Assembly (NCBI RefSeq): GCF_028368995.1
Contig: NZ_JAQNDL010000002.1
Location: 1,056,001 to 1,120,000, forward strand
DNA: 64,000 nucleotides
Source: Nannocystis bainbridge
Lineage (GTDB): Bacteria; Myxococcota_A; Polyangia; Nannocystales; Nannocystaceae
Direction: 5' to 3'
Shown: one piece after another, positions 624-64,000 of the stretch
Layout: every line of letters begins with the position of its first letter
Numbering within the stretch: the first letter of the stretch is position 1
Made by a program: the position numbers and the translations under genes
Notes under the pieces: generated by a model
What the model saw: only the letters and a program-made list of their open reading frames with translations
Databases searched by the model: none
Told to the model about the DNA's origin: nothing

Positions 624-2459
624 GTGGCCCCGGACGCACACGCGCTGCCGACGCTGGCCCCGCAGACGCCGGCGGAGCCGCACCCGGTGGTACGGCTGAC
701 GCGGACGGCCCGGGCGGACTGGCAGCCGGCGGAGGCCGATCCCCCGCTGCAGGCCGGGGCGGTGATCGACGGTCGCTACCGGGTGGTCGCGGTGATCGGC
801 GAGGGCGGGATGGGCCGCGTCTACGAGACGGAGCACCTGTTCCTGCGCCGCAGGCTGGCGCTCAAGCTGGTCCGCCGCGATGCGGGCACCGGCGAGGCGG
901 CGGCGCGGCTGCTGCAAGAGGCGGTGCTGGCCGGGAAGGTGCCGCACGCGACGGTGGTGCCGGTGTTCGACTGCGCCGCGCTGCCCGACGGCCAGGTCTA
1001 CGTGGCGATGGAGCTGCTGCGCGGCGAGAGCCTCGAGGAGGCGCTGATGCGGCCGCAGCGGGCGGAGGCGGTGCTGCGCTGGCTGGCCGAGGTGGCGCGC
1101 GGGCTCGGGGCGGCCCACCGCGCGGGTATCGTCCATCGCGACGTTAAGCCGGCCAACCTGTTCCTGGCCCGCGCGAACGATGGTTCGGTGCAGCCGCGGA
1201 TCCTCGACTTCGGGATCGCCAAGCTGCTGCCGGGGCTGGCGGGCGAGGCCGGGGCGGCGGTCCAGACGCAGGCCGGGGCGCTGCTGGGGACGCCGTTCTA
1301 CATGGCGCCGGAGCGGATCCGCGGCGAGACGGGCGACGGCAGCGCGGACCTCTACGGGTTCGGGGTGATCCTCTACGAGGCGCTGACCGGGCAGGTGCCG
1401 TTCGTCGGCGAGGGCTTCATGGAGATCGTCGGCCGTCACCTGCGCGAGCCGCCGCTCGACCCGCGGCAAGCGGCCCCGCAGCGGCGGATCCCCGACGCGC
1501 TGGCCGAGCTGGCGCTGGCGCTGCTGCGCAAGGATCCGCAGGCGCGACCGCAGGGCGGCGAGGCGGTGGCGGCCGCGCTGCTGGCGGTGCTCGGGGACGA
1601 CCGCGCGGCGGTGGAAGAGTTGTGGCTGGGGGCGGAGGCGCCGGTGTCGGTGGTGGCGGCGACGCAGGCGATCGAGGAGGGGTCGACGCAGCGGCTCGCG
1701 GGACAGGTCTTCGAGGACATGTCTGAAGGGGCATGTCTTAAAGATGGTGTCTCTGGGGACATGTCCTCGGGGGCGAGTCGCGCGAGCGAGCCGTCGTGGG
1801 CCAGCGCGACGGCGGCGACGCTGCCGCCGGGGCTGCGGGGGGCGGAGGCTTCCCGGCATGAGATGTCCCCGGGGACAGGTTCATCCCGGCGCGCGGAGAT
1901 GGCCGCGGAGACAGGTTCGATGGCCGGCGTCGCGAGCGAGATGTCCTTGGAGACAGGCTCAGGCTCGCGGTTCGGGGCCGGGACGGGGCCCGACGAGCCG
2001 GCGCGATCGGACATGGCCTCGCAGCCAGGTCGAGCGGCCGGCAGCCTGCGGGCCGCGGCGCTGGTGCTGGCGTGCATGGCGGGGGGACTGGTGGCGTGGG
2101 TGTTGATGCCGCGCGAGCAGGCCGGCGAGGCGGCCGAGGTGCCGGCCCGGACGGTCCCGATTCCGCCGCTGCCGGTCGCATCGCCAGGGCGGGGCGCGAC
2201 CCGGATGGAGGCCGCCCTGGAGCCCGAGGCCGGGGCGACCGATTCTTCGCCAGAGAGCCTCACGAACGGGTCTGCGGGGCCGGCGACGGAGCCCGCGGCC
2301 GCGGTTACGACGAGCGCCGGGGCCGAGCCCGAGGCGAAGGCGGCCGATCCGGCGCCGGTGAAGAAGCGACCCAGGAAACCGCCGCGCAAAGCTGGTACAA
2401 CCGAGCCAGGTCCGCGCGAATCGGGGCCGAAGATCAAGACCGATGTCTACGACGAGTGA
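624..2459 (+). CDS. Eukaryotic-like Ser/Thr protein kinase with TM segment and low-complexity tail
   Basis: GEGGMGRVY, LALK, HRDVKPAN, DFG and GTPFYMAPE motifs; hydrophobic segment ALVLACMAGGLVAWVLM. Confidence 0.93.
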   Translation: MAPDAHALPTLAPQTPAEPHPVVRLTRTARADWQPAEADPPLQAGAVIDGRYRVVAVIGEGGMGRVYETEHLFLRRRLALKLVRRDAGTGEAAARLLQEAVLAGKVPHATVVPVFDCAALPDGQVYVAMELLRGESLEEALMRPQRAEAVLRWLAEVARGLGAAHRAGIVHRDVKPANLFLARANDGSVQPRILDFGIAKLLPGLAGEAGAAVQTQAGALLGTPFYMAPERIRGETGDGSADLYGFGVILYEALTGQVPFVGEGFMEIVGRHLREPPLDPRQAAPQRRIPDALAELALALLRKDPQARPQGGEAVAAALLAVLGDDRAAVEELWLGAEAPVSVVAATQAIEEGSTQRLAGQVFEDMSEGACLKDGVSGDMSSGASRASEPSWASATAATLPPGLRGAEASRHEMSPGTGSSRRAEMAAETGSMAGVASEMSLETGSGSRFGAGTGPDEPARSDMASQPGRAAGSLRAAALVLACMAGGLVAWVLMPREQAGEAAEVPARTVPIPPLPVASPGRGATRMEAALEPEAGATDSSPESLTNGSAGPATEPAAAVTTSAGAEPEAKAADPAPVKKRPRKPPRKAGTTEPGPRESGPKIKTDVYDE

Positions 2460-3117
2460 GACTCCCCGGTGCCAGCGCCCGCGTGCGGCGGGCTGGCGAC
2501 GCGCGCTGGTCGGCGCTCTCGTGTTCGCGCTGGCGCGGCCGGCCGCGGCGGCTCCGGGAGCGCCCACCGAGGCGCCGGCGACGGTCGATGCTGCGCTGGC
2601 CGCCGGCGACCTGGGGACCGCGCGGGCGCTGGCCGAGCAGGCCCGGGCGGCCGACCCGAGCGCCGACAACTGGCGCCGCGAGGCCGAGGTGTGCCAGCGC
2701 GTGGCCGACTACGTGTGCGCGCGGGCGGCCTGGAAGGGTCACCTGGCGGCGCTGCCGAAGGGGGCCGATCGCGCGTCGGCGGAGGCGCAGCTGGCTGCCC
2801 TCGAGGACATGTCCCGGGGGACAGTCGAGGACGAGGCGGCGTCGACCCACCGCGCCGGGCTCGACAAGGCCCGCGCCGACAAGGACGGGGCGGTGCGCCC
2901 GAAGCCGGCGATCGCCGAGGGTCCGAAGCCGGGGCCGGTGAAGCGCGAGCGGATCGTGAAGAAGTGGTACTTCTGGGTGACGACGATCGCGATCGCGGCG
3001 GCGGCCGGGGCGATCACGGGCATCGCCATCCAGGCGGCCCGCGACGAGCGAACCGACGATCTGGACGAGCGGGCTCGCCTGCGGTTCCAGCCGGAAGGCC
3101 TCGGGCTGCGGTTCTGA
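2443..3117 (+). CDS. Exported TPR-like helical protein, kinase-associated
   Basis: Signal-like ALVGALVFALARPAAAA, TPR-like helices, KKWYFWV plus hydrophobic stretch, C-terminal GLGLRF; overlaps the kinase stop. Confidence 0.7.
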   Translation: MSTTSETPRCQRPRAAGWRRALVGALVFALARPAAAAPGAPTEAPATVDAALAAGDLGTARALAEQARAADPSADNWRREAEVCQRVADYVCARAAWKGHLAALPKGADRASAEAQLAALEDMSRGTVEDEAASTHRAGLDKARADKDGAVRPKPAIAEGPKPGPVKRERIVKKWYFWVTTIAIAAAAGAITGIAIQAARDERTDDLDERARLRFQPEGLGLRF

Positions 3118-3135
3118 GGACGAAAGCCCCGGATG

Positions 3136-3341
3136 CCTGGCGCAGAGACGTCGGGCTGGTGGCGAGCCCGAGAGCTTGGCGTCGAAGCCGCGAGGGCCGG
3201 CCGCCGGATGTCCCAAGGGACAGGTGATGCGCGGGACCTGGCGCAGAGACGTCGGGCTGGTGGCGAGCCCGAGAGTTTTGCGTCGAAGCCGCGAGGGCCG
3301 GCCGTCGGATGTCCCAAGGGACAGGTGATGCGCGGGACCTG
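3136..3341. repeat. Tandem direct repeat, 101-bp unit x2, intergenic
   Basis: CCTGGCGCAGAGACGTCGGGCTGGTGGCGAGCCCGAGAG... begins at 3136 and 3237 with few mismatches; each unit contains TGTCC-CAAG-GGACA. Confidence 0.9.
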
Positions 3342-3492: not shown

Positions 3493-4581
3493 CTAGTAGA
3501 CGGCGCCGTGGAGGGTGAGGCGCAGCCGCTTGAGCGAGAGGGCGCCGCTGCCCCCGGACGCGAAGACGCGCAGGCCCTGGAACTCGTTGTTGCCGACGAT
3601 GCAGGTGCCGAGGTCGACGCCGGCGCTGTGGATCGACCAGTCGTTGGCCATCGAGCCGGTCGAGCCGCACTTGTTGAGCTGGTTCTGCACGGTGAAGATC
3701 ACCGACGAACCGACCGAGTAGCTGCGGCCCTGGGCGCACACCGTCGCGTGATCGTAGGTGAGGCCGCCGATGCCGAACATGATCTGCAGGGCGCCGTTGC
3801 CGTCGACGATCGCCGCGGTGCCGATCTGGTCCTCGTCGACCTCGACGTTTTGATAGATGTCCCACACCTCGGGCCACGACTCGCCCTGCGGCGCCCACTC
3901 AGCCTCGCCCCAGCCCGGCGTCGGCGAGTAGGTCCAGTCGGGGTTGGTCGAGGTGAAGGCGCTCTCGTAGTCGATCTCGAACCAGACGCCGTCGGACGCG
4001 AAGCCGCACGGGTCGCTGGCGGGCATCGGCGTGGGCGTGCAGTCGTTCTCGCAGCCGTCGCCCGGGATCTTGTTGCCGTCGTCGCAAGCCTCGCCGCCTT
4101 CGACCTCGCCGTCGCCGCAGACCGGCGGGGCGGGCGGTCCGCACAGGCCGGCCTGGCACTCGAGGCCGGGGGCGCAGGCGTCGCCCCGACCGCAGGGACA
4201 ACCCTCCTGTCCGATCGGACAGGGTTCGCCGGTGGTGCCGTCGCCGGTCGTGGTCGTGGTCGTGGTCGTGTCGGAGGCGGCTGTGTCGCCGCCGCTGTCG
4301 GTCGCCTCGCTGCCGCTCGCGGGCTCGCTGGCGCCCGTGGCGTCGGTGGCGTCGGTGGCCGTGGCGTCGGTGGTCGCGGCGGAGGTCGCGTCGCTCGCCG
4401 CGGTCAGCGACCCGGCTGACGTGGTCGGCGCGGGCTCGGAGGTGCCGGTCCCGGTCGGCGCAGGGTCGGTCGAATTCGCGGCCGTGACGGACGTGATGCC
4501 GGCGGAGGCGGTGGTGGTGGGGTCCGAGGGATCGCCGCAGGCGGCGAGGAGCAGGAGCGGTCCGAAGCGACGGAGGCGCAT
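3493..4581 (-). CDS. Lipoprotein with Thr/Ser-rich linker and Myxococcus cysteine-rich (DUF4215-like) repeat
   Basis: MRLRRFGPLLLLAAC lipobox; CGDGEVEGGEACDDGNKIPGDGCENDC repeat; beta-rich C-terminal domain. Confidence 0.82.
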   Translation of the reverse strand: MRLRRFGPLLLLAACGDPSDPTTTASAGITSVTAANSTDPAPTGTGTSEPAPTTSAGSLTAASDATSAATTDATATDATDATGASEPASGSEATDSGGDTAASDTTTTTTTTGDGTTGEPCPIGQEGCPCGRGDACAPGLECQAGLCGPPAPPVCGDGEVEGGEACDDGNKIPGDGCENDCTPTPMPASDPCGFASDGVWFEIDYESAFTSTNPDWTYSPTPGWGEAEWAPQGESWPEVWDIYQNVEVDEDQIGTAAIVDGNGALQIMFGIGGLTYDHATVCAQGRSYSVGSSVIFTVQNQLNKCGSTGSMANDWSIHSAGVDLGTCIVGNNEFQGLRVFASGGSGALSLKRLRLTLHGAVY

Positions 4582-4809: not shown

Positions 4810-6666
4810 ATGATGCCGGTTAAGAGATCCATCCCCGCATCCGGGACAGACGCCCTGATCGGCCAGACGATCGGCAGCCACTACACCCTGCAGCGCGTCC
4901 TGGAGCGGGGACCGCGGGTGCTGGCGTTCCTCGCCACGCACCGCACCATGCACCGCACCGTCGTCATCCAGGTGCTCGCGGCGGCGTGGGCCGACGGGAC
5001 GCCGGCGGCGGCGCGCTTCGACGAGCAGGCCAAGGCGCTGGCGGCGCTCGAGCACCCGAACATCGCCGCGGTGCACGACCACGGGCGCGAGCCGGGGCGC
5101 GTGTGGATCGCGGTCGAGTACGTCGAGGGCGAGACGCTGGGCGACTACGTGCGCCGCATGGGTCGACTGCAGCTCGAGGGTTTCGTGCCGATCGCCGCGC
5201 AGGTGCTCAAGGGCCTCGGCGGCGCGCACGTGCGGCGCATCGTGCACGGCGACCTGAACGCCAGCCAGGTGATGCTGGTCGAGGAGCAGGGGCGCGCCAA
5301 CTACGTCAAGCTGCTCGACCTCGGGATCGCGGCGCTGCTCGAGGCGCCCGATGACAGCGACGAGGAGGCGCCGATGGTCGGCGAGCCGGCCTACCTCGCG
5401 CCCGAAGTCATCATGAACGCGCCGGCCGACGCGCGCTCCGACGTGTACGCCGTCGGGGTGCTGTTCTATTACATGCTCAGCGGTCGGCTGCCGTTCGAGG
5501 GCGACAGCCCGCGCGACGTGCTGCACAAGCACGTCAACGCCAAGCCGACGCCGCTCGAGTCGGTGCTGCCGGCGGATCACGGCGTGCCCGACGAGCTGAT
5601 CCACCTGGTCCACGACTGCCTGGCCAAGAACCCCGACAACCGGCCGACCGACGCCAACGAGATCGTCGAGCGGATGATCGATTGCGTGCCGGCGGCGATG
5701 TTCCGCCTGCCGGTCGCGGCGCCGCGCAGCCGCGTGGGCCAGGGCAACGTGTCCCGAGGGCCAGGTCTCGGCGACGCCGAGGCGGCCCAGGACCGGGCCC
5801 GTTCGGCGACGTTGGCTGCCGCCGTCGAGGCCAGCGGCGCCCGCCCGATCCCCGTCGTCGAGGCGCCGGCGAGCGTGGTGGTCCACGAGCCGCCCAGCTC
5901 CAGCGGCAGCTCCGGCTGGATCTTCGCCCTGCTGGCGATCGTCGGCGTCGGCGTCGGCGTGTACTTCTATCTCGAGAGCCAGAAGGTGCCGCAGGTGCCG
6001 CCGGTAGCGATGCCGCACGAGGCGCCGCCGCAGCTGGCCGCCGGGCTGGCCAAGGCGCAAGAGTTCGAAGCCGCCGGCAGGTTGCAGGAGGCGCTCGCGG
6101 CCTACGAGGTCGTGCTGGTCACCGACCCGACCAACGCCCAGGCCAAGGAGCGCCAGGCTGCCCTGAAGGCCATGATCGCCGAGGCGGAGGCCAAGGGCCA
6201 GCTGCCGCCGGACACGAAGGTGGAGACGCCGCCGGACACCAAGGTCGACGGGCCGCCGGATACGAAGGTCGACGCGCCGCCCGAGACGCCGCCGGACACG
6301 AAGGTGGAGACGCCGCCGGACACGAAGGTCGAGACCCCGCCGCAGCCCGTCGGGCCGGTGGCGTTCGCGGTCGAGGCGACGCCGAAGGCCGAGGTGTTCG
6401 TCGACGGCGAGTTGAAGGGCAAGACGCCGCTGACGCTCGAGCTGTCGCCCGGACCGCACAAGATCGAGCTCAAGGCCAAGGGCTTCGACACCCACACCGA
6501 GACGCTCGAGGTCGCGGCCGACGGTCAGAAGGAGCTCAAGGCCAAGCTCAAGCGGGCCGACCGCAAGACCTTCCGTGACGAGGAGAACGCGGCCTCGGAG
6601 GACCTCGACCCCGAAGAGGGCGTCGGCACGAACATCGAGATCACCCGGCCCAAGAAGGGCGGGTGA
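4810..6666 (+). CDS. Ser/Thr kinase-like protein (probable pseudokinase) with TM, TPR and PEGA domains
   Basis: HPNIAAVHD, HGDLNASQV, DLG, YLAPE and SDVYAVG motifs; TM WIFALLAIVGVGVGVYFYL; PEGA-like AEVFVDGELKGKTPL...GPHKIELK. Confidence 0.88.
   Translation: MMPVKRSIPASGTDALIGQTIGSHYTLQRVLERGPRVLAFLATHRTMHRTVVIQVLAAAWADGTPAAARFDEQAKALAALEHPNIAAVHDHGREPGRVWIAVEYVEGETLGDYVRRMGRLQLEGFVPIAAQVLKGLGGAHVRRIVHGDLNASQVMLVEEQGRANYVKLLDLGIAALLEAPDDSDEEAPMVGEPAYLAPEVIMNAPADARSDVYAVGVLFYYMLSGRLPFEGDSPRDVLHKHVNAKPTPLESVLPADHGVPDELIHLVHDCLAKNPDNRPTDANEIVERMIDCVPAAMFRLPVAAPRSRVGQGNVSRGPGLGDAEAAQDRARSATLAAAVEASGARPIPVVEAPASVVVHEPPSSSGSSGWIFALLAIVGVGVGVYFYLESQKVPQVPPVAMPHEAPPQLAAGLAKAQEFEAAGRLQEALAAYEVVLVTDPTNAQAKERQAALKAMIAEAEAKGQLPPDTKVETPPDTKVDGPPDTKVDAPPETPPDTKVETPPDTKVETPPQPVGPVAFAVEATPKAEVFVDGELKGKTPLTLELSPGPHKIELKAKGFDTHTETLEVAADGQKELKAKLKRADRKTFRDEENAASEDLDPEEGVGTNIEITRPKKGG
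6205..6342 (+). repeat. Coding tandem repeat of about 24 bp encoding PPDTKV(E/D)x, five copies
   Basis: CCGCCGGACACGAAGGTGGAGACG-like units; protein PPDTKVETPPDTKVDGPPDTKVDAPPETPPDTKVETPPDTKVETPP. Confidence 0.85.
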
Positions 6667-6717
6667 GCCGCGACGACCTGTCCCGAGGGGCAGGTGGTAC
6701 GCGACCTCGCGCGGCCC

Positions 6718-8280
6718 TCAGTCGCTGCGCAGCACGACGAAGCGCAGCGACTCACGCTCGCCGCGGTGCTCGTAGAGCAGCACCGCCGCCGGCCCGAGCG
6801 TGGCCGTCGTGTCCTCGACCGCCCAGTTGCCCTCGACCGTCAGCGCGGCGGTGAATTCAGGGCGGCGGTACACGGTGAAGCGCGGCGGCTCGCGGGCGGC
6901 GACGAAGCCCGCGCCGATCCACTGGATCCCGGGGATGTCCTTCGGGACAGTTTGTAGCAGCTTGCCGTCGCGCGCCAGCAAGCCGAGCTCCGGGCCGCCC
7001 GTGCGCACGTAGCCGTCGCCGGCCGGGTCGCGGGTGAGGGCCTGGTCCTTCGCCAGGGTGTGCTCGTGCAGGGTGGCGCCGTCGCGCAGATCGAGCCATG
7101 CGTGGGTCGGCGTGCTGGCGTAGGCGAGCATGTTCGTGGCCTCGGCCGGGGCGAGGGCCACGCGGTCGGGCGGCAGCTCCCGACGCCAGCGCTGCTTGCC
7201 AGTGGTGACGTCGCGCAGCTCGACCGCGAGGGTGCGCTCGGACAGGCGACGCACCAGCAGCTTGCCGGGCGCGACCACGCGAGCGTCGGTGCTGTACGAG
7301 TCGTCCGCGCCGGCGAGCTTGGCCCGCCATCGGACATGTCCTGTAGAACATGTCCATGCGACCATGTCGTGTTCGTCGACCGACCAGCACACGTCGGTCG
7401 CCACGTCGCCGCCGACCGGGCGGTACCGCTGCACGGCGTCGGACAGCGCGGGGCGGCGCCACAGCACCTTGCCCTGGTCGTTGACCGCGAGCGCCTCGTA
7501 GGCGTCGTCCATCGGCTGGCTGCGCTTGACGCCGAGCAGGTAGCGGCCGCCGAGCCGCCCGAACAGCCGGGGTGCACCCAAGCACATCACGTTGTGCTCC
7601 GACTGGAAATCGTCGTGGAGGTGGAGCTCGCTGCCTCGCCAGAACCCGCCGATCGGCGCCCCGGTGTCGCAGCGGAACAGCCGCCGCGTGCAGGTGCAGG
7701 CGGCCGAGCAGGCGGTGAGCGCCGGATCGTCGGCGGCGGTGCGGCCCGCGTCGGCGAAGCCGTGCACGATCTCGAGGCGGCATGCGTCGGCCCCGTTGTG
7801 GGCGCCCGCCCGGTGGGTAGCGATCACGGCGCCGCGGGCCGTGTCGACCGCGATCAGGTCGGAGCCGGCGTGCAGGAGCACGCGATCGCCGACGGCGTAG
7901 AGGGTGTGTCGGCCGCGTGGCTCGGCCTGGGCCTCGAGGCGCCACAGCTGGGCGCCCGTGCTTGCGTCGAAGGCCCGCAGGTGGCGGAAGTCGTCGTCGA
8001 GCACGATCACGCGATCGGGCAGGGCCACGGCGGCCCAGCCGCGCACGTCCAGGGCGACGCGCACGCCGGGCGCGGGCGTCAAGACGGAAAGCGGGGCCGG
8101 CGTCGGCGCGGCGGCGACCGGGTCTTTCGGACCGGTCTCTTCGGGCATGTCCTCGGGGACAGCAACCGAGGCCGCGGGGCCCGGCTGCGGGGGCGCCGTC
8201 CTGGGGGCACAAGCGACGACCACGAGCAGGACGATCGAGCGACGCACCGCTCGAGCGTGCCCGACGCCGGCGAAATTCAC
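6718..8280 (-). CDS. PQQ-type/BamB-like beta-propeller repeat lipoprotein
   Basis: Lipobox-like IVLLVVVAC; repeated AFDASTGAQLWR, AVNDQGKVLWR and DVTTGKQRWR blades. Start is 8280 (GTGA overlap) or 8247. Confidence 0.78.
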   Translation of the reverse strand: MNFAGVGHARAVRRSIVLLVVVACAPRTAPPQPGPAASVAVPEDMPEETGPKDPVAAAPTPAPLSVLTPAPGVRVALDVRGWAAVALPDRVIVLDDDFRHLRAFDASTGAQLWRLEAQAEPRGRHTLYAVGDRVLLHAGSDLIAVDTARGAVIATHRAGAHNGADACRLEIVHGFADAGRTAADDPALTACSAACTCTRRLFRCDTGAPIGGFWRGSELHLHDDFQSEHNVMCLGAPRLFGRLGGRYLLGVKRSQPMDDAYEALAVNDQGKVLWRRPALSDAVQRYRPVGGDVATDVCWSVDEHDMVAWTCSTGHVRWRAKLAGADDSYSTDARVVAPGKLLVRRLSERTLAVELRDVTTGKQRWRRELPPDRVALAPAEATNMLAYASTPTHAWLDLRDGATLHEHTLAKDQALTRDPAGDGYVRTGGPELGLLARDGKLLQTVPKDIPGIQWIGAGFVAAREPPRFTVYRRPEFTAALTVEGNWAVEDTTATLGPAAVLLYEHRGERESLRFVVLRSD

Positions 8281-9342: not shown

Positions 9343-9520
9343 GGACATGTCCCGGGAGCATGGGATGAGATGCCCGAAGACACATGTTTTTCAAGACATG
9401 TCCTTCGGGACATCGGCCGAGCCTCGGAGTGGCATGGCCGATCGGACATGTCCCCAAATTCATTAAACATGGAGCCGGCGATCGACGTGTCTCTCGGGAC
9501 ATGTCCGATCGCGCATGCCC
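9343..9520. repeat. Intergenic array of 14-bp-phased GGACATGTCC-like palindromes
   Basis: Decamers at 9343; 9366/9380/9394/9408; 9430/9444; 9483/9497/9511. Confidence 0.85.
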
Positions 9521-9674: not shown

Positions 9675-11866
<2,192 letters not shown>

Positions 11867-11867
<1 letters not shown>

Positions 11868-12013
11868 CGGCTGTCCCCGAGGATAGGATGACATGTCCGA
11901 AGATGCAGGTCGCACGGCCTGTACCTTCGGACATGTCGACGATCATGGGGCGATGCCGCCGGACCGCAGGGCAGAGCACCTGCGCCTTCGCACATGTCCC
12001 TGGATGCATGGGG
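11867..12013. repeat. 14-bp-phased GGACATGTCC-like array between convergent genes
   Basis: Decamers at 11889/11903, 11915/11929 and 11976/11990/12004. Confidence 0.75.
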
Positions 12014-27609: not shown

Positions 27610-27615
27610 TTCGCC

Positions 27616-29726: not shown

Positions 29727-29839
29727 GCCCGGGTGCGCCCGCGTAGGGCGCCGGTGACGTGCTCCGAAGCCTATGCGCTCGGGGGCATGTCTGCGAGGAC
29801 ATGCCGGGACCACGGGCCGCGCTCGGTCGACTCTCGCAG

Positions 29840-31071: not shown

Positions 31072-31127
31072 GCCGATGTGGTCTCCGCTGGTGAAAATCG
31101 CGGAATTTAGGGTAGGCTTCGCGGCGT

Positions 31128-37828: not shown

Positions 37829-38530
37829 GTGACCGACGAGCCGCTGAGCTTGACCAAGGTGACGGCGTCGATCGGCGGAGCGCTGCTCGCCGCGTCGTTC
37901 TTCCTGCCGCTGGTGGACATGCGGGCCGGCGGCTCGGCGGCGGGAGACGTGTTCGGGGTGGAGTCGATGCGCCGCCAGATCGAGGGCTCGCGCGAGTTCG
38001 AGAGCGTGAAGCCGCTGATCGCTCCGGCGCTTCAGCAGCTCGAGGCGTTCGGCGCGGGGCCAAGCCTGCGCAACCTCTCGCGCCTGGTCGTGGCGACGAA
38101 GGAGATCGTCGACACGGTGGTGGCCACCGGGCTGGCGCCGGCCGAGGCGAAGGTGGCCTCGACGGCGCTCGGCGCGACGCGGCTGCTCTTATGGTTGGTG
38201 CCGCTGGTGGGGGCGGTGCAAGCGGTGCTGCCGCTGCTGACGCGCTTTCGCGGCTACGCCGGCTTCTTCGGCCTGCTGGCGCGGTTCGGCTTCGGCCTGG
38301 TGTTCGTGACGCTGGCCCTGATCCCGCTGCTCGGGGCCCCGGGCGCGCGCCCGTTCCTCGGGCTCGCGGTCTATGCGGCCCTGTTCGGGGGCGGGCTGAT
38401 GATGGCGAGCGGCATGTTGGGAGTGAGCCGCGGCAACTTCTTGCTGGTGTTCGCGGCCCAGGCCGGGGTGCTGGCGGCGGTGGTGTTCGGGCTGCGGGCG
38501 CTGGTCGAGGCCGGTCAGCGCGCGCTGTGA
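37829..38530 (+). CDS. Membrane protein of unknown function
   Basis: N-terminal ALLAASFFLPLV and about 4 further TM helices. Confidence 0.72.
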   Translation: MTDEPLSLTKVTASIGGALLAASFFLPLVDMRAGGSAAGDVFGVESMRRQIEGSREFESVKPLIAPALQQLEAFGAGPSLRNLSRLVVATKEIVDTVVATGLAPAEAKVASTALGATRLLLWLVPLVGAVQAVLPLLTRFRGYAGFFGLLARFGFGLVFVTLALIPLLGAPGARPFLGLAVYAALFGGGLMMASGMLGVSRGNFLLVFAAQAGVLAAVVFGLRALVEAGQRAL

Positions 38531-38545: not shown

Positions 38546-38611
38546 GGACATGTCGAAAAGGGCATGTCTCCGGGGGCATGGTCGATCGGGCATGTCCTCG
38601 GGGACAGCAGT
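38546..38611. repeat. Five 14-bp-phased GGACATGTCC-like decamers
   Basis: Decamers at 38546, 38560, 38574, 38588 and 38602. Confidence 0.88.
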
Positions 38612-42200: not shown

Positions 42201-43010
42201 TCGATCGTCGCCGACCTCGACGTACCCGAGCGCGACCTCAATGAACGTCCGCGGCGGCTCGTGCCCGGATCGATGGCGCTCGTGCTGGTTTGCTTGCTGG
42301 TGCTCGGGATCGCCGGGGGCGGCGGATACCTCGCCTGGGAGCGGTCGCAGGCGCAGCCGACGCTCGAACCGACGGTCGAGCCCGAGGCCGTGACGCTGCC
42401 GCCGGTCGAAGGGCCCGAGGCCGCGCCCGTGCCGGTCGATCCCGCCGTGCCGGGGGCGACGACGTCGACTCCGACGGGCACGTCGCCGGGCGCGACACCC
42501 GGCACGACGCCGACCACGTCACCGGGCACGACGCCGGGCAAGACGGATCCGGCGCCGACGAAGACGGGCACGACGCCGACGACCAAGCCTCCGAAGACGA
42601 AGTCCGAGTCCGGCAGCTCCACGCCGAAGAAGCCGCCGGCCGAGAAGACGGGCTCGAGCTCGAAGACGGGCTCGGGCGGCACCAAGAAGGCCGATCCGGC
42701 CGAGGAGCTGGCCAAGCGCAAGGACCAGGCGGACGCGGCAGATCCGGGGCGCGTGCTGGTCGAGCTCGAGTATCTCAGCGCGATCGACAAGGCGCTCAAG
42801 GCCGGCAACTGGGCCCAGGCGCTGGCCTACATCGATCAGCACGACAAGGAGCTGCCGGGCGGGCAGTTGGTCGACAAGTTCGACGAGCGGCGGATCCGGG
42901 CGCTGTGCGGGATGGGTCGGGCGAGCGAGGCGCAGGCCAAGGTGACGCAGATCCTGGCCAAGCGCCCGAGCTCGAAGGTGAAGACGGCCCTGGCCGAGTC
43001 CTGCAAATGA
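39246..43010 (+). CDS. ECF sigma-like domain fused via a very long Gly/Pro repeat linker to a TM and TPR-like (anti-sigma-type) C-terminus
   Basis: Region-2-like FHQHFGVVRAAARLFGIPSSLLDDVALQTF; region-4-like LAPQAREVFVLAELGGLRVPEISAELGV; TM ALVLVCLLVLGIAGGGGYLAW; C-terminal ALAYIDQHDKELPGGQL...RIRALCGMGR. Confidence 0.75.
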   Translation: MTDPTKAAESDAQGLRDAFHQHFGVVRAAARLFGIPSSLLDDVALQTFVMAHGRGEDLQQLAIARSRLVTLTRRVAEWYREEMPPATVDVPVEFPGSDVLARFVGGLAPQAREVFVLAELGGLRVPEISAELGVGFEAARAQVVELVRDFAAATAAAGAEEVLHDLVRVLDPPPVQRELQFAALEARLAPRSLTPEGAEPAHSQWIMPISLRRASSGAMQAAEPAAEAGASGQVGPLAAGTNASGQVAVEGSLAAGTGASGQVGSLAAGTGASGQVDSLAAGTGPSGHVVGGAGASGDILGLSPGGLVGGAGGTPGGAGAEAQDGAPAGSGASGQLAGGTGAAPGLAPPPPIGGQGVQGAEVNSGSVLAALAQMTEGTGAVGHGQGLPPGGGPMAAGPGGAPAGVGAVAQNPAWPAPGASGQVAGGTGGAPAWGPPPGLGGSGQSAGSPGAAAPGGASGQMAGGTGGAPAWGPPPGVAGSSQNAGWPAPPGSGTPASGQMAGGTGGAPAWGPPPGVVGNPQNAGWPAPPGPGTPASGQMAGGTGGAPAWGPPPGIGGSPQNSGWPASPPGVGGAVAGLLPPGPGGQGPAGSWPAPQGNGPAAAPAVSGPLAGGPGAVSGLPGVGEPPLGSGPVSPVSPAPGAWGPPPGGLPTGAAPGSSGAAPAPGQGSPVLGATAPIFGGLLAGSGVPSMPVGTGPSGQMAGPGMAPEAGPLGHAPTGFQPPAGPGMAPGTGPLGHVPTGFQPLAGPAMAPGTGPLGHVPAGPQPALAPAGNSGVEQGGVMSPGTGPWGQVPSGPQPALPLAGHSEQGGVMAPGRGPWGQAPPGPQPALQPAGHSGAEQGQMAPGTGPWGQAPAGPQPALPPGQAAGMAPGTGPWGHPAGSQPASEPAAGTGPWGHPAGPQVALPPAGHSGAEPGSGMAPGTGPWGHAPSAPQAALPPGQGAGMAPGTGPWGQVPPGPAPGAAWGPPGPVPAPGRQAAPPKRSGSIVADLDVPERDLNERPRRLVPGSMALVLVCLLVLGIAGGGGYLAWERSQAQPTLEPTVEPEAVTLPPVEGPEAAPVPVDPAVPGATTSTPTGTSPGATPGTTPTTSPGTTPGKTDPAPTKTGTTPTTKPPKTKSESGSSTPKKPPAEKTGSSSKTGSGGTKKADPAEELAKRKDQADAADPGRVLVELEYLSAIDKALKAGNWAQALAYIDQHDKELPGGQLVDKFDERRIRALCGMGRASEAQAKVTQILAKRPSSKVKTALAESCK

Positions 43011-43077: not shown

Positions 43078-43290
43078 TGATATGTCTTTCGGGACATGTC
43101 CGTTCGGACTTGTGAAGTCCGAGCAATGGTGGCAACGGATATTGTCCCGAAGGACATGTCCTTGAGGATATGTGCACGCCCGGCGAACTCGCGAGATGGA
43201 CATTGTGTCCGGGCCGCTGAGACTGGCTGGAATGCTCCGCTCGTTGCGATGGCGAGGACAATCTCCAAAGATGTCCTGAAGGACAGGCCA
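43078..43290. repeat. 14-bp-phased GGACATGTCC-like arrays in an intergenic region
   Basis: Decamers at 43078/43092/43106, 43138/43152/43166 and 43267/43281. Confidence 0.85.
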
Positions 43291-43863: not shown

Positions 43864-45129
43864 TCAGGCGCGGCGGCGGGTGGCGGCCGGCTTGGCGTCG
43901 CTCGGATTGTCGCGGCTCTGGGCCGGCTTGGCGTCGGGCAGCTTGCCCTGGAGGTCCTTCATCAGGTCGCCGAGGCTACCGAGGCCCTTGCTGCCGCCGG
44001 CGCCCTTCTTGGCCTCCTTGGCGAAGGTCTTGTAGGCGGTGCGCTCTTCGGCCGCCGCGACGCCCTGGATGCTGAAGCGGAGCTTGCCCTCGCCGCCGCC
44101 GCGGCCGAGCATCACGACTTCGACGTCCTTGCCGACGGGGAAGGCGCGCCGCGGATCGGCGTTGGGCGGCAGGCCGAGCTCGCTGAGCGGCACCAGGCCG
44201 CGACCGGCCTCGGTGTCGACGAACACGCCGAAGTTGGTGACCTGGCCGACCTTGCCCGCCAGCACCTGCTCGGTAGCGGCGGAGGTGGTGGGCTCGCTCG
44301 TCTGATCGGCCGACTTCATCGACAGGCTGATCTTGAGGTCGGTCGGGCTGGTGCCGCGCGGCTCGACGGCCAGCACGCGCACCTTGACCGACTCGCCGAT
44401 CTTGATCACGTCGTCGATCTTGTCGACGCGGCCGTGGCCGAGCTCGGAGATGTGGATCATGCCCTCGATGCCGCCGAGGTCGACGAAGGCGCCGTAGGGC
44501 TGGATCGTCTGGACGATGCCCTCGAGCTCGGCGCCGACGACGAGGCGCTCGCGCACCGCCTTGGCCTGGTTCTCGCGCTCGTCCTTGAGGACGGCCTTGC
44601 GCGAGACGATGACCGAGCGGCCGCCGTCGCGGATCTCGATGACCTTGAAGAACTGCTTGGTGCCGACGAAGCGCTCGAGGTCCTGGGCGAAGCCGAGGTC
44701 GACCTGCGAGGCGGGGCAGAACGCGCGCACGCTGCCGAGCTCGACCTCGAGGCCGGCCTTGACGGCCTTGGTGACGGTGGCCTCGACGGGCACGCCGCTC
44801 TGCAGCGCGAGGTCCAGCGACTGCGTGTCGATGCCGCCCCTGCCGATGGCGACGACCAGCTGGATGCCGCCCGACACGGACGCGACCGTGGCGCGCAGCT
44901 TGTCGCCGATCTTGACCTTGAGGTTGCCTTCTTTGTCGAGGAGCTGGGCGCGTTCGATCCGCCCCTCGCTCTTGGCACCGATGTCGAGGAACACGCTGTC
45001 GGCACCGATCTCGACCACCGGACCCTCGACGAGCTGTCCGGGGCGCACGCGCTTGCTCAGCCTGGCGCGCGTCTGCGCACCCTGGGCTTCAAACATCGCG
45101 GCGAAGTCTTCATCTTGCTGCTGGGCCAT
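43864..45129 (-). CDS. S1 RNA-binding-domain protein (RpsA-like, about 4 S1 repeats)
   Basis: DFAAMFE, FLDIGAKSEG, RAFCPASQV, YGAFVDLGGIEGMIHISEL, FGVFVD; shorter than a 6-domain RpsA. Confidence 0.88.
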   Translation of the reverse strand: MAQQQDEDFAAMFEAQGAQTRARLSKRVRPGQLVEGPVVEIGADSVFLDIGAKSEGRIERAQLLDKEGNLKVKIGDKLRATVASVSGGIQLVVAIGRGGIDTQSLDLALQSGVPVEATVTKAVKAGLEVELGSVRAFCPASQVDLGFAQDLERFVGTKQFFKVIEIRDGGRSVIVSRKAVLKDERENQAKAVRERLVVGAELEGIVQTIQPYGAFVDLGGIEGMIHISELGHGRVDKIDDVIKIGESVKVRVLAVEPRGTSPTDLKISLSMKSADQTSEPTTSAATEQVLAGKVGQVTNFGVFVDTEAGRGLVPLSELGLPPNADPRRAFPVGKDVEVVMLGRGGGEGKLRFSIQGVAAAEERTAYKTFAKEAKKGAGGSKGLGSLGDLMKDLQGKLPDAKPAQSRDNPSDAKPAATRRRA

Positions 45130-62235: not shown

Positions 62236-63510
62236 TCACTTGCGCGGGCGCTCGCTCGCCGCGTCGGGCACCCACTCGAGTGTCTCTTGGGACATGTCGA
62301 TGAGGGCATGTCCGAAAGTTCCTTCGAGCTCGGCCCGCAGCGCGCGCGCCAGCGCCTCGTAGTGGGCGACCTCGTTGTAGAGCTGGGCCGAGATCCGGAT
62401 CAGCCGCTGCGGCGGGGCCGGCCACCACGGCACCGGCACCTCGATGCGGTGGCGCGACAGCAGCGCGTCCTGCAGCGGGTCCGACGTCAGCGGCGTCACC
62501 ACCTGGCCATCGGGACCTGGCGGAAGGGACAGGCTCGCCAGGCTGCCCAGCATCGCCTCCGGGGCCGGCAGCGCCGCGCCGATCGCCTTGGCCACGAGCT
62601 TGCGGCCGGCGCACGCCAGCGCGTGGTTGCGCGCCTGCACCTCGGGCCAGCCGCCGGGCAGCATCTCGCCCATCTCGCGCAGGGCCGCGGGCACGCACAG
62701 CCACGGCGACGGGTCGGCGGTGCCGGTCCAGTCGAACTCGGCCTGCAGCCGCGAGCCCGCGCGCGGGTCGTTGAACCCGTGGCTGATCACGGCCGGGTGG
62801 ATCGGCTCCTGACGGTCGCGGCGGACGTGCAGGATCGCCGCGCCCTTGGGCGCGCACACCCACTTGTGGAGGTTGCCGGTGTAGTAGGCCGCGCCGATCG
62901 CGTCGAGGTCGAGCGGGACCATCCCGGGCGCGTGGGCGCCGTCGACCAGGCAGTCGACGCCGCGCTCCTGCAGCGCCGCGACGATGCCGGCGATCGGCAG
63001 CAGCAGCCCGGTCGGGCTGGTCACGTGGTCGACCAGCGCCAGCCGGGTGCGCGGCGTGACCGCGGCGAGGACCGCCGCGATCGCCTCGTCGGGCCCGCTG
63101 ATGGGGAAGGGCAGGGCGGCGGTGACCACCTTCGCACCTGTCCGATGGGCCACGTAGCGGGCGGCGTTGTTGCAGGCGTTGTAGCCGTGCGAGGTGATCA
63201 GCAGCTCGTCGCCGGGGCTGAACTCGAGCGAGCGCAGGATCGCGTTGACGCCCTCGCTGGCGTTGCGCACGAACACCAGGTCGCGCGGATCGGCGCCGAC
63301 GAACGCGGCCGCCGCCTCGCGCGCGGCCGCGAGCGGGGCCTGCAGATCGCGGAGGAAGAAGCGCACGGGCTGCCGCTCCATGCGCCGCCGCAGCTCGTCC
63401 TGGACCGCGAGCACCGCCCGGGGGCACGCGCCGAAGCTGCCGTGGTTGAGGAACACGACCTCCGGATCGAGGGTCCAGCGGCTCCGGAGCTCGGCGGCGA
63501 CGGGCGACAT
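62236..63510 (-). CDS. Class V PLP-dependent aminotransferase (isopenicillin N epimerase/cysteine lyase-like)
   Basis: FLNHGSFGACP, DHVTSPTG, DGAHAPG, GNLHKWVCAPKG, FDWTGT, RISAQLYN. Confidence 0.92.
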   Translation of the reverse strand: MSPVAAELRSRWTLDPEVVFLNHGSFGACPRAVLAVQDELRRRMERQPVRFFLRDLQAPLAAAREAAAAFVGADPRDLVFVRNASEGVNAILRSLEFSPGDELLITSHGYNACNNAARYVAHRTGAKVVTAALPFPISGPDEAIAAVLAAVTPRTRLALVDHVTSPTGLLLPIAGIVAALQERGVDCLVDGAHAPGMVPLDLDAIGAAYYTGNLHKWVCAPKGAAILHVRRDRQEPIHPAVISHGFNDPRAGSRLQAEFDWTGTADPSPWLCVPAALREMGEMLPGGWPEVQARNHALACAGRKLVAKAIGAALPAPEAMLGSLASLSLPPGPDGQVVTPLTSDPLQDALLSRHRIEVPVPWWPAPPQRLIRISAQLYNEVAHYEALARALRAELEGTFGHALIDMSQETLEWVPDAASERPRK

Positions 63511-63560
63511 CCCCGATCCTTACCACGCCCGTCGCGGCGCATCCTCATTATACTGGCCGG

Positions 63561-64000
63561 GTGCTGCGTCGCGTCGTCGAGCCGATCTTCGGGGTCGCGT
63601 TACGGATCTTCTTCCGCCGGATCGAGCTCGACGGCCTGTCGCGCGTGCCCGCCGACGGGCCGGTGATGTTCGTGCTCAACCACCCCAACGCGCTGATCGA
63701 TCCGGCCTTCTTGCTGTGCCTGTCGCCGCGCCCGGTGGCGTTCCTGGCCAAGGCCCCGCTGTTCAAGACACCTGTCCTCGGGGCCATCGTGCGCGCGTTC
63801 GACTCGATCCCGGTGTACCGCCGGCAGGACGAGGGCGGCGCGCGCGTCGACAACGGCGACACCTTCCGTCTCGCGCGCGAGCTGCTGTTGCGCGGCCGCG
63901 CCATCGCCATCTTCCCCGAGGGCACCTCGCACTCGGATCCCGACCTCAAGCCGCTCAAGACCGGCGCCGCGCGCATCGCTCTCGGGACCGGCCTCGAGGA
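63561..64000 (+). CDS. PlsC-like glycerol-phosphate acyltransferase, runs off the right edge of the window
   Basis: Manual translation: ...GPVMFVLNHPNALIDP...FLAKAPLF...IPVYRRQD...IAIFPEGTSH...LKTGAARIAL. Confidence 0.88.
   Translation, partial: MLRRVVEPIFGVALRIFFRRIELDGLSRVPADGPVMFVLNHPNALIDPAFLLCLSPRPVAFLAKAPLFKTPVLGAIVRAFDSIPVYRRQDEGGARVDNGDTFRLARELLLRGRAIAIFPEGTSHSDPDLKPLKTGAARIALGTGLE

Follow-up and report, generated by a model that had tools for sequence, protein, structure and literature searches.

The window, meaning the whole 64,000-nt stretch analysed here, comes from Nannocystis bainbridge (GCF_028368995.1, NZ_JAQNDL010000002.1, positions 1,056,001-1,120,000, forward strand). Copies of a short palindrome, whose core unit is the 14-bp TGTCC-YNNR-GGACA, lie in its genes and in the gaps between them, at the following sites among others (strand given where one is assigned):

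1701..1961: units at 1748, 1864 and 1942, all within the low-complexity C-terminus encoded by ORF 624..2459 (+), a Ser/Thr kinase
3209..3323: the same single unit (TGTCCCAAGGGACA) twice, once in either half of a tandem duplication of 101 bp
6679..6692: one unit between the convergent genes 4810..6666 (+) and 6718..8247 (-), whose gap measures 51 bp
9343..9511: full decamers and units, loosely clustered in the long gap 5' of 9675..11867 (+)
11872..11938: units in the convergent gap that follows 9675..11867 (+), the first of them 4 nt past its stop
29766..29956: two degenerate units followed by eight 14-bp units, together the window's longest array
34067..34113: a phased run of three to four units that takes up the 73 bp between the convergent genes 33394..34062 (+) and 34136..35452 (-)
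38546..38606: array of about four units, the first 16 nt past the stop of 37823..38530 (+)
39917..42110, plus strand: many unit pairs within ORF 39246..43010, in its repeat region rich in Pro and Gly
43078..43285: a single unit and two arrays of 2 units, ahead of 43864..45129 (-) in a convergent gap
62276..62313: decamers in phase at the 3' terminus of gene 62236..63510 (-), placed in its last codons by the crude gene call

An earlier note on this DNA had described the palindrome as window-wide. Indeed, the window contains 14 exact copies of TGTCC-N4-GGACA where 0.02 would be expected, none of 100 dinucleotide shuffles having more than one copy, and GGACATGTCC with up to one mismatch occurs 42 times against 2.0 expected (largest shuffle, 6). 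When a unit is defined as TGTCC-N4-GGACA with at most one core mismatch, the window contains 63 units at 50 loci, a higher number than the roughly 30 clusters of the earlier note. Its positions hold wherever they were checked (1715/1757, 1864, 2805, 3209, 4208, 6936, 7332/7346, 8143, 9343-9497, 11889-11990, 12498, 19739, 29868-29943, 32984, 34095, 35534, 37050, 38546/38588, 40104-42088, 43092/43152, 47572, 53579 and 62290/62304), and its symmetric variant TGTCT-TTAG-AGACA was located at 3366-3379. At the gathering score, Rfam 15 matched a tRNA alone in the window (36186-36257), with no match at the palindrome units.

The pair of units at 3209..3323 lies where two genes of the crude calls, 2521..3117 (+) and 3493..4581 (-), converge. 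The unit at 6679..6692, which folds as an 8-bp hairpin, sits 12 nt past one stop and 25 nt ahead of the other. The array at 29766..29956 occupies the gap where an MlaD-domain gene (28374..29726, +) converges on one for an alpha/beta-hydrolase (29940..30899, -). TRF delimits its 8-unit part to 29842-29953 (period 14, 8.0 copies, 93% matches), and the hydrolase stop codon, 29940-29942, falls within the last array junction, minus strand GGACATGA. Six of six close species also have an array here, with differing unit numbers and spacers. The units at 43078..43285 begin 68 nt past the stop of ORF 39246..43010. The cluster at 9343..9511 is a minority, 5'-side locus, and its units are not all in the same register.

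Two of the stretches listed in the earlier note (1701-1955 and 39925-42110) lie within real ORFs and are protein-coding repeats, which it had not remarked; the periods of their unit pairs range from 36 to 117 bp and are always divisible by 3. The kinase ORF carries its Pkinase domain at aa 52-315, and the units of its tail encode M-S-P-G-T-G-type peptides, with a TRF period of 36 bp. Besides a weak sigma-70 region-4 match, the sigma-like ORF 39246..43010 has a C-terminal domain, a TM helix and a Pro/Gly-rich linker. Its units encode GTGPWGQ- and MAGGTG-type peptides via the rare codons ACA, GGA and GGT, its repeat periods are 39, 66, 78, 90 and 117 bp, and its peptide repeats were also found in an ORF of a relative.

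Anatomy of the unit and its arrays across the genome

In the 11.05-Mb genome scanned (five contigs; completeness 90.5%), TGTCC-Nk-GGACA occurs 1,987 times at k=4, 16 times at k=3 and 5 times at k=5, and 0-32 times at each of the other k from 0 to 30, an N18 echo excepted. In the opposite arrangement, GGACA-Nk-TGTCC occurs 956 times at k=0 versus 11 at k=1, a junction spacing of zero. Adjoining units therefore follow one another without a linker, and arrays take the form (GGACATGTCC-N4)n, with a CATG each 14 bp. The palindrome reaches about 20 bp (ACATG-N10-CATGT, 1,472 times), and outside the 1,987 units conservation ends about 3 bp on either side, apart from a 14-bp echo. Enrichment is limited to the N4 inverted pair, lone GGACA being close to the expectation from base composition (11,418 versus about 10,000). 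This is the only dominant palindrome family of the genome that is not codon-periodic.

With at most one mismatch, 6,245 units were found at 4,967 loci, about 0.57 units per kb, and 4,007 of these loci hold a single unit. Successive units are 14 bp apart 485 times, 28 bp 274 times, 42 bp 165 times and 56 bp 58 times, with tallies of 0 to 4 at 16-20 bp. In intergenic gaps, a CATG-to-CATG distance of 14 occurs 3,225 times, compared with about 50 at neighbouring distances, and chains of at least three CATG at exact 14-bp steps number 801, compared with 0-8 at steps of 12, 13, 15 or 16. These data substantiate the 14-bp phasing described earlier, and both signals that the earlier note had proposed to look for, an excess at k=4 and a 14-bp autocorrelation, are very large. 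Nor is the motif confined to the window, as all five contigs are populated (35-201 units per full 250-kb bin, without trend along the contigs). Loci are irregularly spaced (gap CV, 1.21), and one 44-kb stretch of lower G+C is motif-free.

Spacers are biased as the earlier note had read them, Y-N-N-R, with C or T at position 1 in 78% and A or G at position 4 in 76%. The commonest spacer accounts for 107 of the 1,987 exact units. Neighbouring units have differing spacers in 452 of 485 pairs and share one in 17, indicating that arrays are not recent copies, though their phase is exact. Together with a genome lacking any RAYT gene and units lacking a GTAG or CGTC tag, this bears out the claim that the units are not copies of one mobile element.

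The two half-sites vary almost independently of each other. At pair 3/12, single breaks (381+314) far exceed the 146 C-G doubles, showing that it is the sequence that is conserved, not pairing. Independence predicts 60 such doubles and background about 26 more; among 786 neighbour units, C/G at this pair was seen 49 times, with about 45 expected. Overall, compensated doubles reach 1.3-2.4 times the independence expectation, and the odds ratio at flank pair -1/+14 is about 2.8. Spacers located 3' of co-directional genes are strand-symmetric (TTCG 76 versus CGAA 60; GNRA 59 sense versus 62 antisense). The sense strand shows a small excess of G-U over A-C, 706 to 558.

Gene-end placement, constraint and range

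All positional figures depend on a crude GC3-based gene caller (7,118 genes, 79% coding), which missed some genes and over-extended some ORFs. On these calls, units occur in 683 of 1,316 convergent, 980 of 3,893 co-directional and 243 of 1,324 divergent gaps. A unit starts between -16 and +60 nt from the stop of 1,565 of the 7,118 genes, and many begin within 30 nt of the stop codon. In long co-directional gaps, 240 of 941 units lie in the first tenth, next to the upstream stop. This placement at gene 3' ends and in convergent gaps is new here and is the main positional fact that the earlier note had missed; it also lets the motif mark gene ends in hard-to-annotate genomes. Not all genes are alike in this respect. 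Of the most codon-biased set, 22 of the top 25 genes have no unit, and carriage is 0.27 in the top 2% versus 0.42 in decile 9, which speaks against the units being strong insulators or terminators. Carriage is also lower after genes whose codon usage is atypical, at 0.25-0.28 for the lowest deciles. Only 5 of 102 tRNA genes have a unit within 60 nt downstream, and many end in ordinary hairpin-plus-T-tract terminators. At protein-gene ends, hairpin-plus-T-tract sites are barely above background (149/984 convergent versus 119/977 divergent gaps).

Constraint was measured against one species of about 91% nucleotide identity, 48% of 186 intergenic units being aligned. Intergenic identity was 0.854 in the core, 0.637 in the spacer and 0.673 in the flanks. 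Inside genes, third-codon positions were identical in 366 of 403 cases in the core (0.908) versus 87 of 123 in the spacer (0.707). The core is thus under purifying constraint, even at synonymous codon positions. Exact units within genes number 765, whereas 10 shuffles of synonymous codons gave 17-24 (mean, 20.2). Units in genes occur in all three frames (436/274/61). Gaps bearing units here were also unit-bearing in the relative in 52 of 69 cases, compared with 3 of 110 unit-free gaps. Presence disagreed in 17 gaps in one direction and in 3 in the opposite direction; of 12 such gaps displayed, at least 10 show a degenerate phased remnant in the 'empty' species, not a clean empty site.

The earlier note had suggested a survey of relatives. 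An 18-mer of the motif was found in 10 of 10 Nannocystis genomes searched, with 180-369 copies in six large assemblies (369 versus 186 in the two species compared), and more thinly in two sister genera (6/6 and 3/3 genomes), while 41 genomes of 13 further genera of the family gave no match. Sister genera manage without the motif, which is therefore no general necessity; it is a strong genus signature for binning or typing Nannocystis DNA.

A putative DNA-binding dimer and its rivals

From this anatomy, copy number, position, conservation and range we infer binding by a protein, its cooperativity and a role for the bound arrays. We favour, with confidence falling just short of even, the view that the units are double-stranded DNA sites for a putative dimeric protein bound side by side. 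The rigid N4 and zero-junction spacing, the near-independent half-sites and the strand-symmetric spacers fit such a dimer. A candidate sequence-specific protein would recognise the sites on double-stranded DNA, one dimer per unit, with adjacent dimers in a constant 14-bp register, in which three units make 42 bp, close to four turns of the helix. The cores would be preserved chromosome-wide, in genes via codon choice, by selection or by a drive specific to the sequence, and sites would accumulate where they are tolerated or useful, right after stops and most of all between convergent genes. As to their role, our guess would be a gene-end boundary or nucleoid organisation, like that proposed for REP/BIME. 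A more specific version is possible but more doubtful: a dedicated protein-DNA system of Nannocystis and two sister genera, in which a dimer would polymerise in 14-bp register on arrays at about 40% of transcription-unit ends, forming bidirectional gene-end boundaries all over the chromosome (roadblocks, topological barriers or nucleoid anchors), with selection on the sites strong enough to shape in-gene codon choice. Should a protein indeed bind the arrays, myxobacteria would have a new and abundant factor that organises the chromosome or marks gene ends, and a map of its roughly 5,000 sites would be at hand. We know of no bacterial sequence-specific gene-end marking by phased protein arrays, and a literature search found no published description of the motif, which the earlier note had likewise not recognised.

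The genes beside 174 divergent-gap loci yielded no candidate for the binding protein. The extended unit CATGTCC-N4-GGACATG contains ATGT-N8-ACAT, given as the PadR-family operator pattern in an excerpt of PMC4517056. A PadR-family binder was rejected, as PF03551 had no match in the genome (13 candidates scored; family found in 14 of 14 controls) and the units avoid divergent gaps, whereas PadR sites lie in promoters. A p53-type binder was also discarded, no p53-type domain being found in the genome.

An unlikely alternative is that the units act in RNA, as UGUCC-N4-GGACA hairpins, longer with their CAUG flanks, in 3' untranslated regions. There they would protect mRNA 3' ends from exonucleases, aid termination or engage an RNA-binding protein that recognises hairpins, in line with proposals for REP. 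Their location right after stops, between convergent or co-directional genes and rarely in divergent gaps, agrees with this, such 3' placement being read as a sign of RNA function in a passage of a REP survey (PMC3733652). Arrays also fold as RNA better than shuffles in six of six tested (z -1.6 to -6.7). The modest excess of compensated doubles, a residual symmetry correlation, and the slight G-U excess may reflect an RNA-level contribution, and the near-background frequency of hairpin-plus-T-tract sites at protein-gene ends leaves room for another 3' signal. However, the loop length of 4 is kept about 100-400-fold more rigidly than hairpin stability demands, the loop shows no sense-strand preference for stable tetraloops, and pair-breaking singles outnumber compensated changes. 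A lone 5-bp stem is weak, yet most loci are single-unit, and the CATG flanks are common to adjacent units, so that the extended stems of neighbours compete. Moreover, codon choice keeps the motif within genes, and tRNA genes rely on ordinary terminators. An intrinsic (Rho-independent) terminator was rejected, since no T-tract follows the unit at positions +14 to +43 and the stem sequence is fixed.

We give still less credence to an uptake-signal-like or 'self' marker under molecular drive, whereby a transformation receptor, a recombination protein or a defence protein prefers motif-bearing DNA, so that the motif spreads to an equilibrium density and survives best where harmless. The density of about 0.57 units per kb, with units on all contigs, the clade specificity, the in-gene units kept in all three frames by codon choice, the inverted pairs concentrated after genes, and the scarcity after atypical-codon genes and absence from the lower-G+C stretch are all compatible with it, as are match qualities that differ between species genome-wide at shared loci (the 18-mer counts and discordant gaps above). 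Genes for ComEC, DprA and a ComEA-type protein (HHH_3) are present, but competence genes occur equally in 10-11 of 14 control genomes. The fixed-N4 inverted pair is obligatory, GGACA alone not being enriched, and drive leaves unexplained both the strict 14-bp arrays of unrelated units and the units close to the upstream stop in long co-directional gaps. Non-autonomous mobile DNA of REP/REPIN or MITE type, spread by an unrecognised transposase, is quite improbable. It would account for the REP-like traits of the units, which are palindromic, numerous and located outside genes on the 3' side, and for unit numbers that vary at the same locus among close species, and some REP classes (CGTC type) also have no known transposase according to a passage of PMC3733652. 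Against it, Y1/RAYT (PF01797) had no match in the 90.5%-complete genome (3 candidates scored; family found in 6 of 14 control genomes), and GTAG lies within 12 bp of 34 of 1,987 units versus 36 of 1,987 control places (CGTC, 241 versus 329). Spacers are unrelated between copies, conservation is absent outside the unit, a 14-bp insertion would break the frames of genes that nonetheless hold exact units, and the loci are old, being common to species or leaving degenerate remnants. MITE or IS ends, which are conserved terminal inverted repeats of a longer element with a target-site duplication, were discounted: none of the 12 displayed orthologous gaps that were discordant showed a clean insertion, and outside the unit there is no information apart from its 14-bp echo. 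Least credible is a functionless minisatellite growing and shrinking by replication slippage after genes. The nearly identical units at 29842-29953 and the unit numbers varying between close species are what slippage would produce, but this reading is contradicted already by a core conserved while spacers and flanks diverged, by in-gene motifs kept against codon bias and by the rarity of shared spacers; the 4,007 single-unit loci also count against it.

Comparison with known systems

By location, gene 3' ends, the closest kin of the units are REP/BIME elements, which the units resemble in this respect and not in anatomy. In excerpts of PMC2817692 and PMC3733652, REP/BIME are likewise species- or genus-specific short palindromes of hundreds to thousands of copies in regular composite arrays, and the latter places them mostly 3' of genes, in convergent and co-directional gaps, with few in genes. 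The same sources describe BIMEs as binding sites for several proteins (PMC2817692), E. coli REPs as DNA gyrase targets and the REP end tag as a GTAG or CGTC tetranucleotide (PMC3733652). By contrast, the Nannocystis unit is 14 bp (18-20 with flanks) instead of 20-40 bp, its spacer is free where the REP loop is copied, it has neither tag nor RAYT, and its arrays keep one strict register with zero linker in place of alternating orientations with linkers. It is also maintained in genes by codon choice. The case bears on old REP questions, whether such repeats act as DNA or RNA and are selfish or useful, in a setting where transposase-driven copying, the usual REP explanation, does not apply and sequence constraint is directly measurable.

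Phased operator arrays bound cooperatively by small dimers include the 8-bp metboxes of MetJ, the 7-bp heptads of omega protein and the ParR/parC iterons, all few per genome and located in promoters or centromeres. They share with our arrays short symmetric or repeated boxes that abut in a single exact register, the outer ones being degenerate, the anatomy that would be expected of side-by-side cooperative binding; the Nannocystis arrays differ by their 14-bp period and their roughly 5,000 loci at gene ends. The analogy to parS, matS and SBS/NBS drawn in the earlier note fails on copy number and distribution, as those systems comprise tens of sites in ori, ter or non-ter domains with a known dimer, whereas these loci spread over five contigs with no ori/ter or macrodomain restriction. 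DUS of Neisseria and USS of Pasteurellaceae are asymmetric 9-12-mers working as single copies. They too are clade-specific short motifs found about once per 1-2 kb over the whole chromosome, in tolerated frames within genes, thinner in atypical DNA and often as inverted pairs right after genes, but here the inverted pair at fixed N4 is obligatory and forms phased arrays. HIP1 (GCGATCGC) of cyanobacteria is, similarly, a hyper-abundant short palindrome kept in coding and non-coding DNA of one clade. It is an 8-mer of different sequence and organisms, without the arrays, fixed phasing or marked gene-end preference seen in Nannocystis.

Rickettsia palindromic elements are 100-150-bp insertions. 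Like these and in-gene REPs, as outlined in part of PMC3733652, the units in the kinase tail and the 39917-42110 linker are repeat DNA read through as extra peptide of proteins that are otherwise normal, a case of repeat DNA recruited as protein linkers. The Nannocystis units differ in being 14 bp long and occurring in all three frames, and single in-gene units must have arisen by point changes.

Spacing and register of the palindrome

The window (contig C3, positions 1056001-1120000) holds 14 exact copies of TGTCC-N4-GGACA (0.02 expected), the 14-bp palindrome hereafter called the unit, and 42 copies with at most one mismatch of the decamer GGACATGTCC (2.0 expected), a degenerate palindrome with CATG in its middle that lies at unit junctions. 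Both motifs had been described in an earlier note made without database searches, and both are borne out. With at most one mismatch in the core, that is, in the two half-sites flanking the N4 spacer, the window carries 63 units at 50 loci. Across the whole Nannocystis genome (11.05 Mb, 71.5% G+C, five contigs), the spacing k=4 accounts for 1,987 copies of TGTCC-Nk-GGACA and every other k between 0 and 30 for 0-32, except for k=18, whose 379 occurrences represent the next unit of an array. The reverse arrangement, GGACA-Nk-TGTCC, peaks at k=0 (956), k=14 (638) and k=28 (275), with about 4-50 at other k. When one mismatch is allowed, 6,245 units have an N4 spacer, compared to 101 to 272 for spacers of N3, N5 or N6. 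Unit-to-unit steps are 14 bp (485), 28 bp (274), 42 bp (165) and 56 bp (58), so that the excess at k=4 and the 14-bp autocorrelation that the earlier note had anticipated are both present.

The same register is displayed by CATG itself. In intergenic gaps, 3,225 CATG pairs lie 14 bp apart versus about 50 at adjoining distances, and exact 14-bp chains of 3, 4, 5, 6, 7, 8, 9 and 12 CATGs number 328, 213, 159, 75, 22, 2, 1 and 1, respectively; chains of at least three at steps of 12, 13, 15 or 16 bp number at most 8 each. When all 5-Nk-5 palindromes in the genome were scanned blind, the unit family, in four overlapping registers, was the only dominant one without codon periodicity. Its consensus is (A)CA/TG-Y-C-C-Y-N-N-R-G-G-R-CA/TG(T), slashes marking the unit edges, with near-invariant TG and CA and a spacer that is free save for a Y..R bias. 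CATG is not under-represented in the genome (ratio 1.24), and CTAG is scarce, its 1,509 occurrences being 0.20 of the 7,649 that trinucleotide counts predict.

Confinement of the motif to the window, which would have spoken against a genome-wide system, was not observed: all contigs are similar, with 35-201 units per full 250-kb bin. Density is flat along the contigs, which are not closed, and shows no trend of the kind an origin-to-terminus gradient would produce. Loci are not regularly spaced as expected of a structural lattice, the gaps between them having a median of 1.6 kb and a CV of 1.21. Contigs C1 and C2 each have a 171-aa gene at their extreme end (C1:4535731-4536243 and C2:3032952-3033464); the two agree in length, codon score and 267-bp downstream gap, which suggests repeated sequence or assembly overlap at the contig ends.

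Placement at gene ends and within genes

Genes were called with a crude third-position-G+C (GC3) caller of our own (7,118 genes, 79% of the genome covered), which overlooks genes and makes some ORFs too long; the figures of this section are therefore approximate. The 4,964 classified loci fall in called genes (2,164), convergent gaps (1,004), co-directional gaps (1,443) and divergent gaps (353). Convergent gaps account for 18% of gap length but for 36% of extragenic loci and 48% of extragenic loci with at least two units; for divergent gaps the shares are 27%, 13% and 7%, respectively. Units are borne by 683/1,316 convergent, 980/3,893 co-directional and 243/1,324 divergent gaps, and the disparity is sharpest between 100 and 200 bp, with 217/347 convergent versus 14/264 divergent gaps. 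In co-directional gaps of at least 300 bp, 240 of 941 loci lie within the tenth adjoining the upstream stop. A unit starts between -16 and +60 nt from the end of the stop codon in 1,565 of the 7,118 genes, with peaks at -3, where the TGA itself forms the first TGN of the unit, and at +2/+3; many short convergent gaps are occupied by units from stop to stop. CATG chains of at least three are 93% extragenic (convergent 383, co-directional 320, in-gene 53, divergent 44).

Units are mostly absent from genes with the strongest codon bias: 22 of the first 25 have none, and the top 2% of genes carry them at 0.27 compared to 0.42 in decile 9. This argues against a strong terminator or insulator role for the arrays, as does the lack of the motif in sister genera. 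The tRNA genes provide a further reference. Many stand-alone ones (C1:362009, C1:1004619, C1:2430673 and C3:221884, for example) lead into a G+C-rich hairpin and a T-tract ending in TTTGG, and among 102 aragorn calls just 5 are followed by a unit within 60 nt. The window contains one such gene:

Window 36186-36257, + strand: tRNA gene (Rfam RF00005, 68.8 bits; tRNA-Val by aragorn), with a hairpin and TTTGG tract rather than units downstream

The organism thus possesses canonical hairpin-plus-T-tract terminators, and the arrays are of another kind. No trade-off between units and ordinary terminators was detected (no anticorrelation, odds ratios 1.0-1.5) with a simple hairpin-plus-T-tract finder whose matches at protein-gene ends barely exceed the divergent-gap background. 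Elsewhere, about 28 tRNA genes are densely packed within 2.6 kb (C2:2556665-2559233), in what looks like a tRNA island of the mobile-element or phage kind; the nearest units lie 2-4 kb away on its upstream side and 8-11 kb away on its downstream side.

The longest stretch of the genome without units is the following:

C2:741520-785869 (44 kb): 26 called genes, 69.5% G+C

It encodes ordinary transport and metabolic functions, including a sulfatase, an RND efflux pump, a P-type ATPase, PPDK and HypF. Nine of the ten proteins scanned have Pfam family matches. The stretch bears no clear mark of a prophage and may be more recently acquired DNA.

Within genes, units occur in all three frames (436/274/61), in slightly Pro/Ser/Ala-rich surroundings, and units that follow each other at 14 nt cannot share a reading frame. 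Those in the window encode peptides of the MSPGTG-, MAGGTG- and GTGPWGQ-type, using the rare codons ACA, GGA and GGT. Three features of the window illustrate this:

Window 1701-1955: units in the tail of a Ser/Thr kinase, a real ORF with its kinase domain at aa 52-315
Window 39246-43010, + strand: 1,254-aa ORF in which aa 100-134 weakly match sigma-70 region 4 (E 1.2e-4, short of the Pfam cut-off)
Window 39917-42110: units in the Pro/Gly-rich linker (about 730 aa) of ORF 39246-43010

Both unit-bearing segments are repeat DNA read as protein linker; read-through of palindromic repeats inside genes is described for REPs and RPEs in PMC3733652. Beyond its sigma-70 match, the 1,254-aa ORF runs through the Pro/Gly-rich repeats of about 730 aa and a TM helix to a segment rich in Lys, Thr and Pro that carries a conserved C-terminal domain; a 1,333-aa ORF in a relative has the same peptide repeats. 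The product of the window ORF may be of the sigma/anti-sigma-like kind, anchored in the membrane, with a linker of unusual length. Two non-coding tandem duplications also lie in the window, one at 3136-3341 (101 bp, 2.0 copies, 97% identity) with one unit per copy, and one at 43472-43646 (80 bp, 2.2 copies, 95% identity) without units.

Conservation of the core and proposed recognition as DNA or RNA

A congeneric genome (about 91% nucleotide identity) was compared over a 400-kb segment collinear with the window and its surroundings. Its spacing profile is the same: 65 units have the k=4 spacer, and other spacings number 0-1 each. Among 186 extragenic units (48% alignable), identity is 0.854 in the core, 0.637 in spacers and 0.673 in outer flanks, against 0.847 for aligned gap DNA overall, although the aligner may pair non-orthologous units of such a repeated motif. 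These values show that a consensus core is retained at a locus while spacers turn over. Gaps with units in one genome mostly have them in the other (52/69 unit-bearing versus 3/110 unit-free gaps), and in at least 10 of 12 discordant gaps displayed, the "empty" side keeps a degenerate CATG-phased remnant. The array at window 29766-29956, at the 3' end of a hydrolase gene, is kept in 6/6 close species with differing unit numbers and spacers. Called genes contain 765 exact units, whereas ten shuffles among synonymous codons yield 20.2 on average (range 17-24); for decamers the corresponding counts are 307 and 33.5, so the excess withstands the codon-preserving background proposed earlier. In 116 in-gene units, third-codon positions of the core are identical in 366/403 cases (0.908), compared to 87/123 (0.707) in the spacer and a genomic baseline of 0.859. 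The comparisons therefore indicate that the core is constrained at the DNA (or RNA) level and not at the protein level.

Several observations bear on which of the two would be recognized. An RNA-level, REP-like role draws support from the folding of the arrays (z -1.6 to -6.7 in 6/6 tested) and from their gene-end position, taken by REP surveys as a sign of RNA function (PMC3733652). However, the N4 spacing is far stricter than hairpin stability needs, which favors recognition as DNA, and changes in the two half-sites are nearly independent, pair-breaking singles exceeding compensated doubles. At pair 3/12, singles number 381 and 314 versus 146 C-G doubles (60 predicted by independence, background about 26); in 786 units adjoining an exact unit, compensated C/G changes number 49 versus about 45 expected, and the residual symmetry excess is a modest 1.3-2.4-fold. 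Downstream of co-directional genes, spacers show no strand preference (TTCG 76 versus CGAA 60; GNRA 59 sense versus 62 antisense), G-U exceeds A-C on the sense strand by only 706 to 558, no T-run follows the unit, and units have no Rfam match. We consider an RNA-level role unlikely. Public sequences covering the stretch are metagenome and metatranscriptome contigs only, and lack of cover over a part of it carries no meaning. One contig from a relative's RNA library, at window 27000-31500, joins the two convergent genes through 61 letters where the genome studied here has a gap of 228 bp, which shows a length difference, not transcription.

Spread by copying fares worse. Spacers of adjacent units are unrelated in 452 of 485 pairs (17 identical, 14 reverse-complementary) and the register is exact all the same, indicating that the units of an array are not recent copies and leaving a functionless minisatellite barely credible. 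The high copy number would fit an unrecognised mobile element only very improbably, since nothing is conserved outside the unit, neither a GTAG nor a CGTC tag accompanies it, and no RAYT/Y1 transposase gene was found in the genome. A larger, REPIN-like inverted-repeat organisation was likewise rejected, reverse-complementary spacers not being enriched (14/485 at 14 bp, 6/855 at 61-120 bp). Drive resembling that of uptake signals is doubtful; competence genes are present but do not discriminate.

The anatomy would be best explained if dimers of a protein lined up side by side on double-stranded DNA. This reading draws on the fixed half-site spacing, the zero linker, the exact register with unrelated spacers, the near-independent half-sites, the strand symmetry and the core kept even at synonymous sites. 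Putative dimers would occupy successive units in fixed register, and bound arrays, because units sit at gene ends, might serve as boundaries or act on topology, as has been proposed for BIMEs. That the arrays are a new protein-DNA system marking gene ends is a tentative proposal that we hold to be possible rather than probable. The earlier note had proposed such a protein; the anatomy fits, but the search for the protein was fruitless. The likeness to the p53 half-site (RRRCATGYYY) is a coincidence, with no PF00870 match at E up to 1. The extended unit also fits ATGT-N8-ACAT, the PadR-family operator pattern given in PMC4517056, but the genome has no PF03551 match. An autoregulated binder was sought by ranking 174 loci in divergent gaps below 700 bp, and no recurrent DNA-binding candidate emerged from reading the genes beside the top 45.

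Comparison with known systems and phyletic range

No description of the motif was found in the literature searched (subscription journals and supplements lay outside reach). The unit family resembles REPs and BIMEs in position and abundance but departs from them in every anatomical criterion tested, namely length, a copied loop, a GTAG/CGTC tag and a RAYT. Uptake sequences and HIP1 have genome-wide features in common with it but a different form; cooperative operator arrays have its form but differ in number and place. We rate it as belonging with the high-copy extragenic palindromes.

A 28-mer of two units was found in 9/10 other genomes of the genus and in 0/10 genomes of ten other genera. 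The 18-mer CATGTCC-N4-GGACATG occurs in 10/10 other genomes of the genus, with 369 copies in the genome studied here, 180-266 in five large assemblies and 2-50 in fragmentary ones. The survey of related myxobacteria, also proposed earlier, gave a divided answer: the 18-mer is present in a second genus (6/6 genomes, 1-43 copies) and a third (3/3, 2-5 copies), but in 0/41 genomes from 13 more genera in the family. Sister genera therefore include many that live without the motif, and 140-kb samples, which are small, from two motif-free genera revealed no analogous palindrome family. Among 16 loci fetched from the two sister genera with the motif, 5 lie just 3' of stop codons and 6 in genes, the other 5 being on contigs where the GC3 caller fails.
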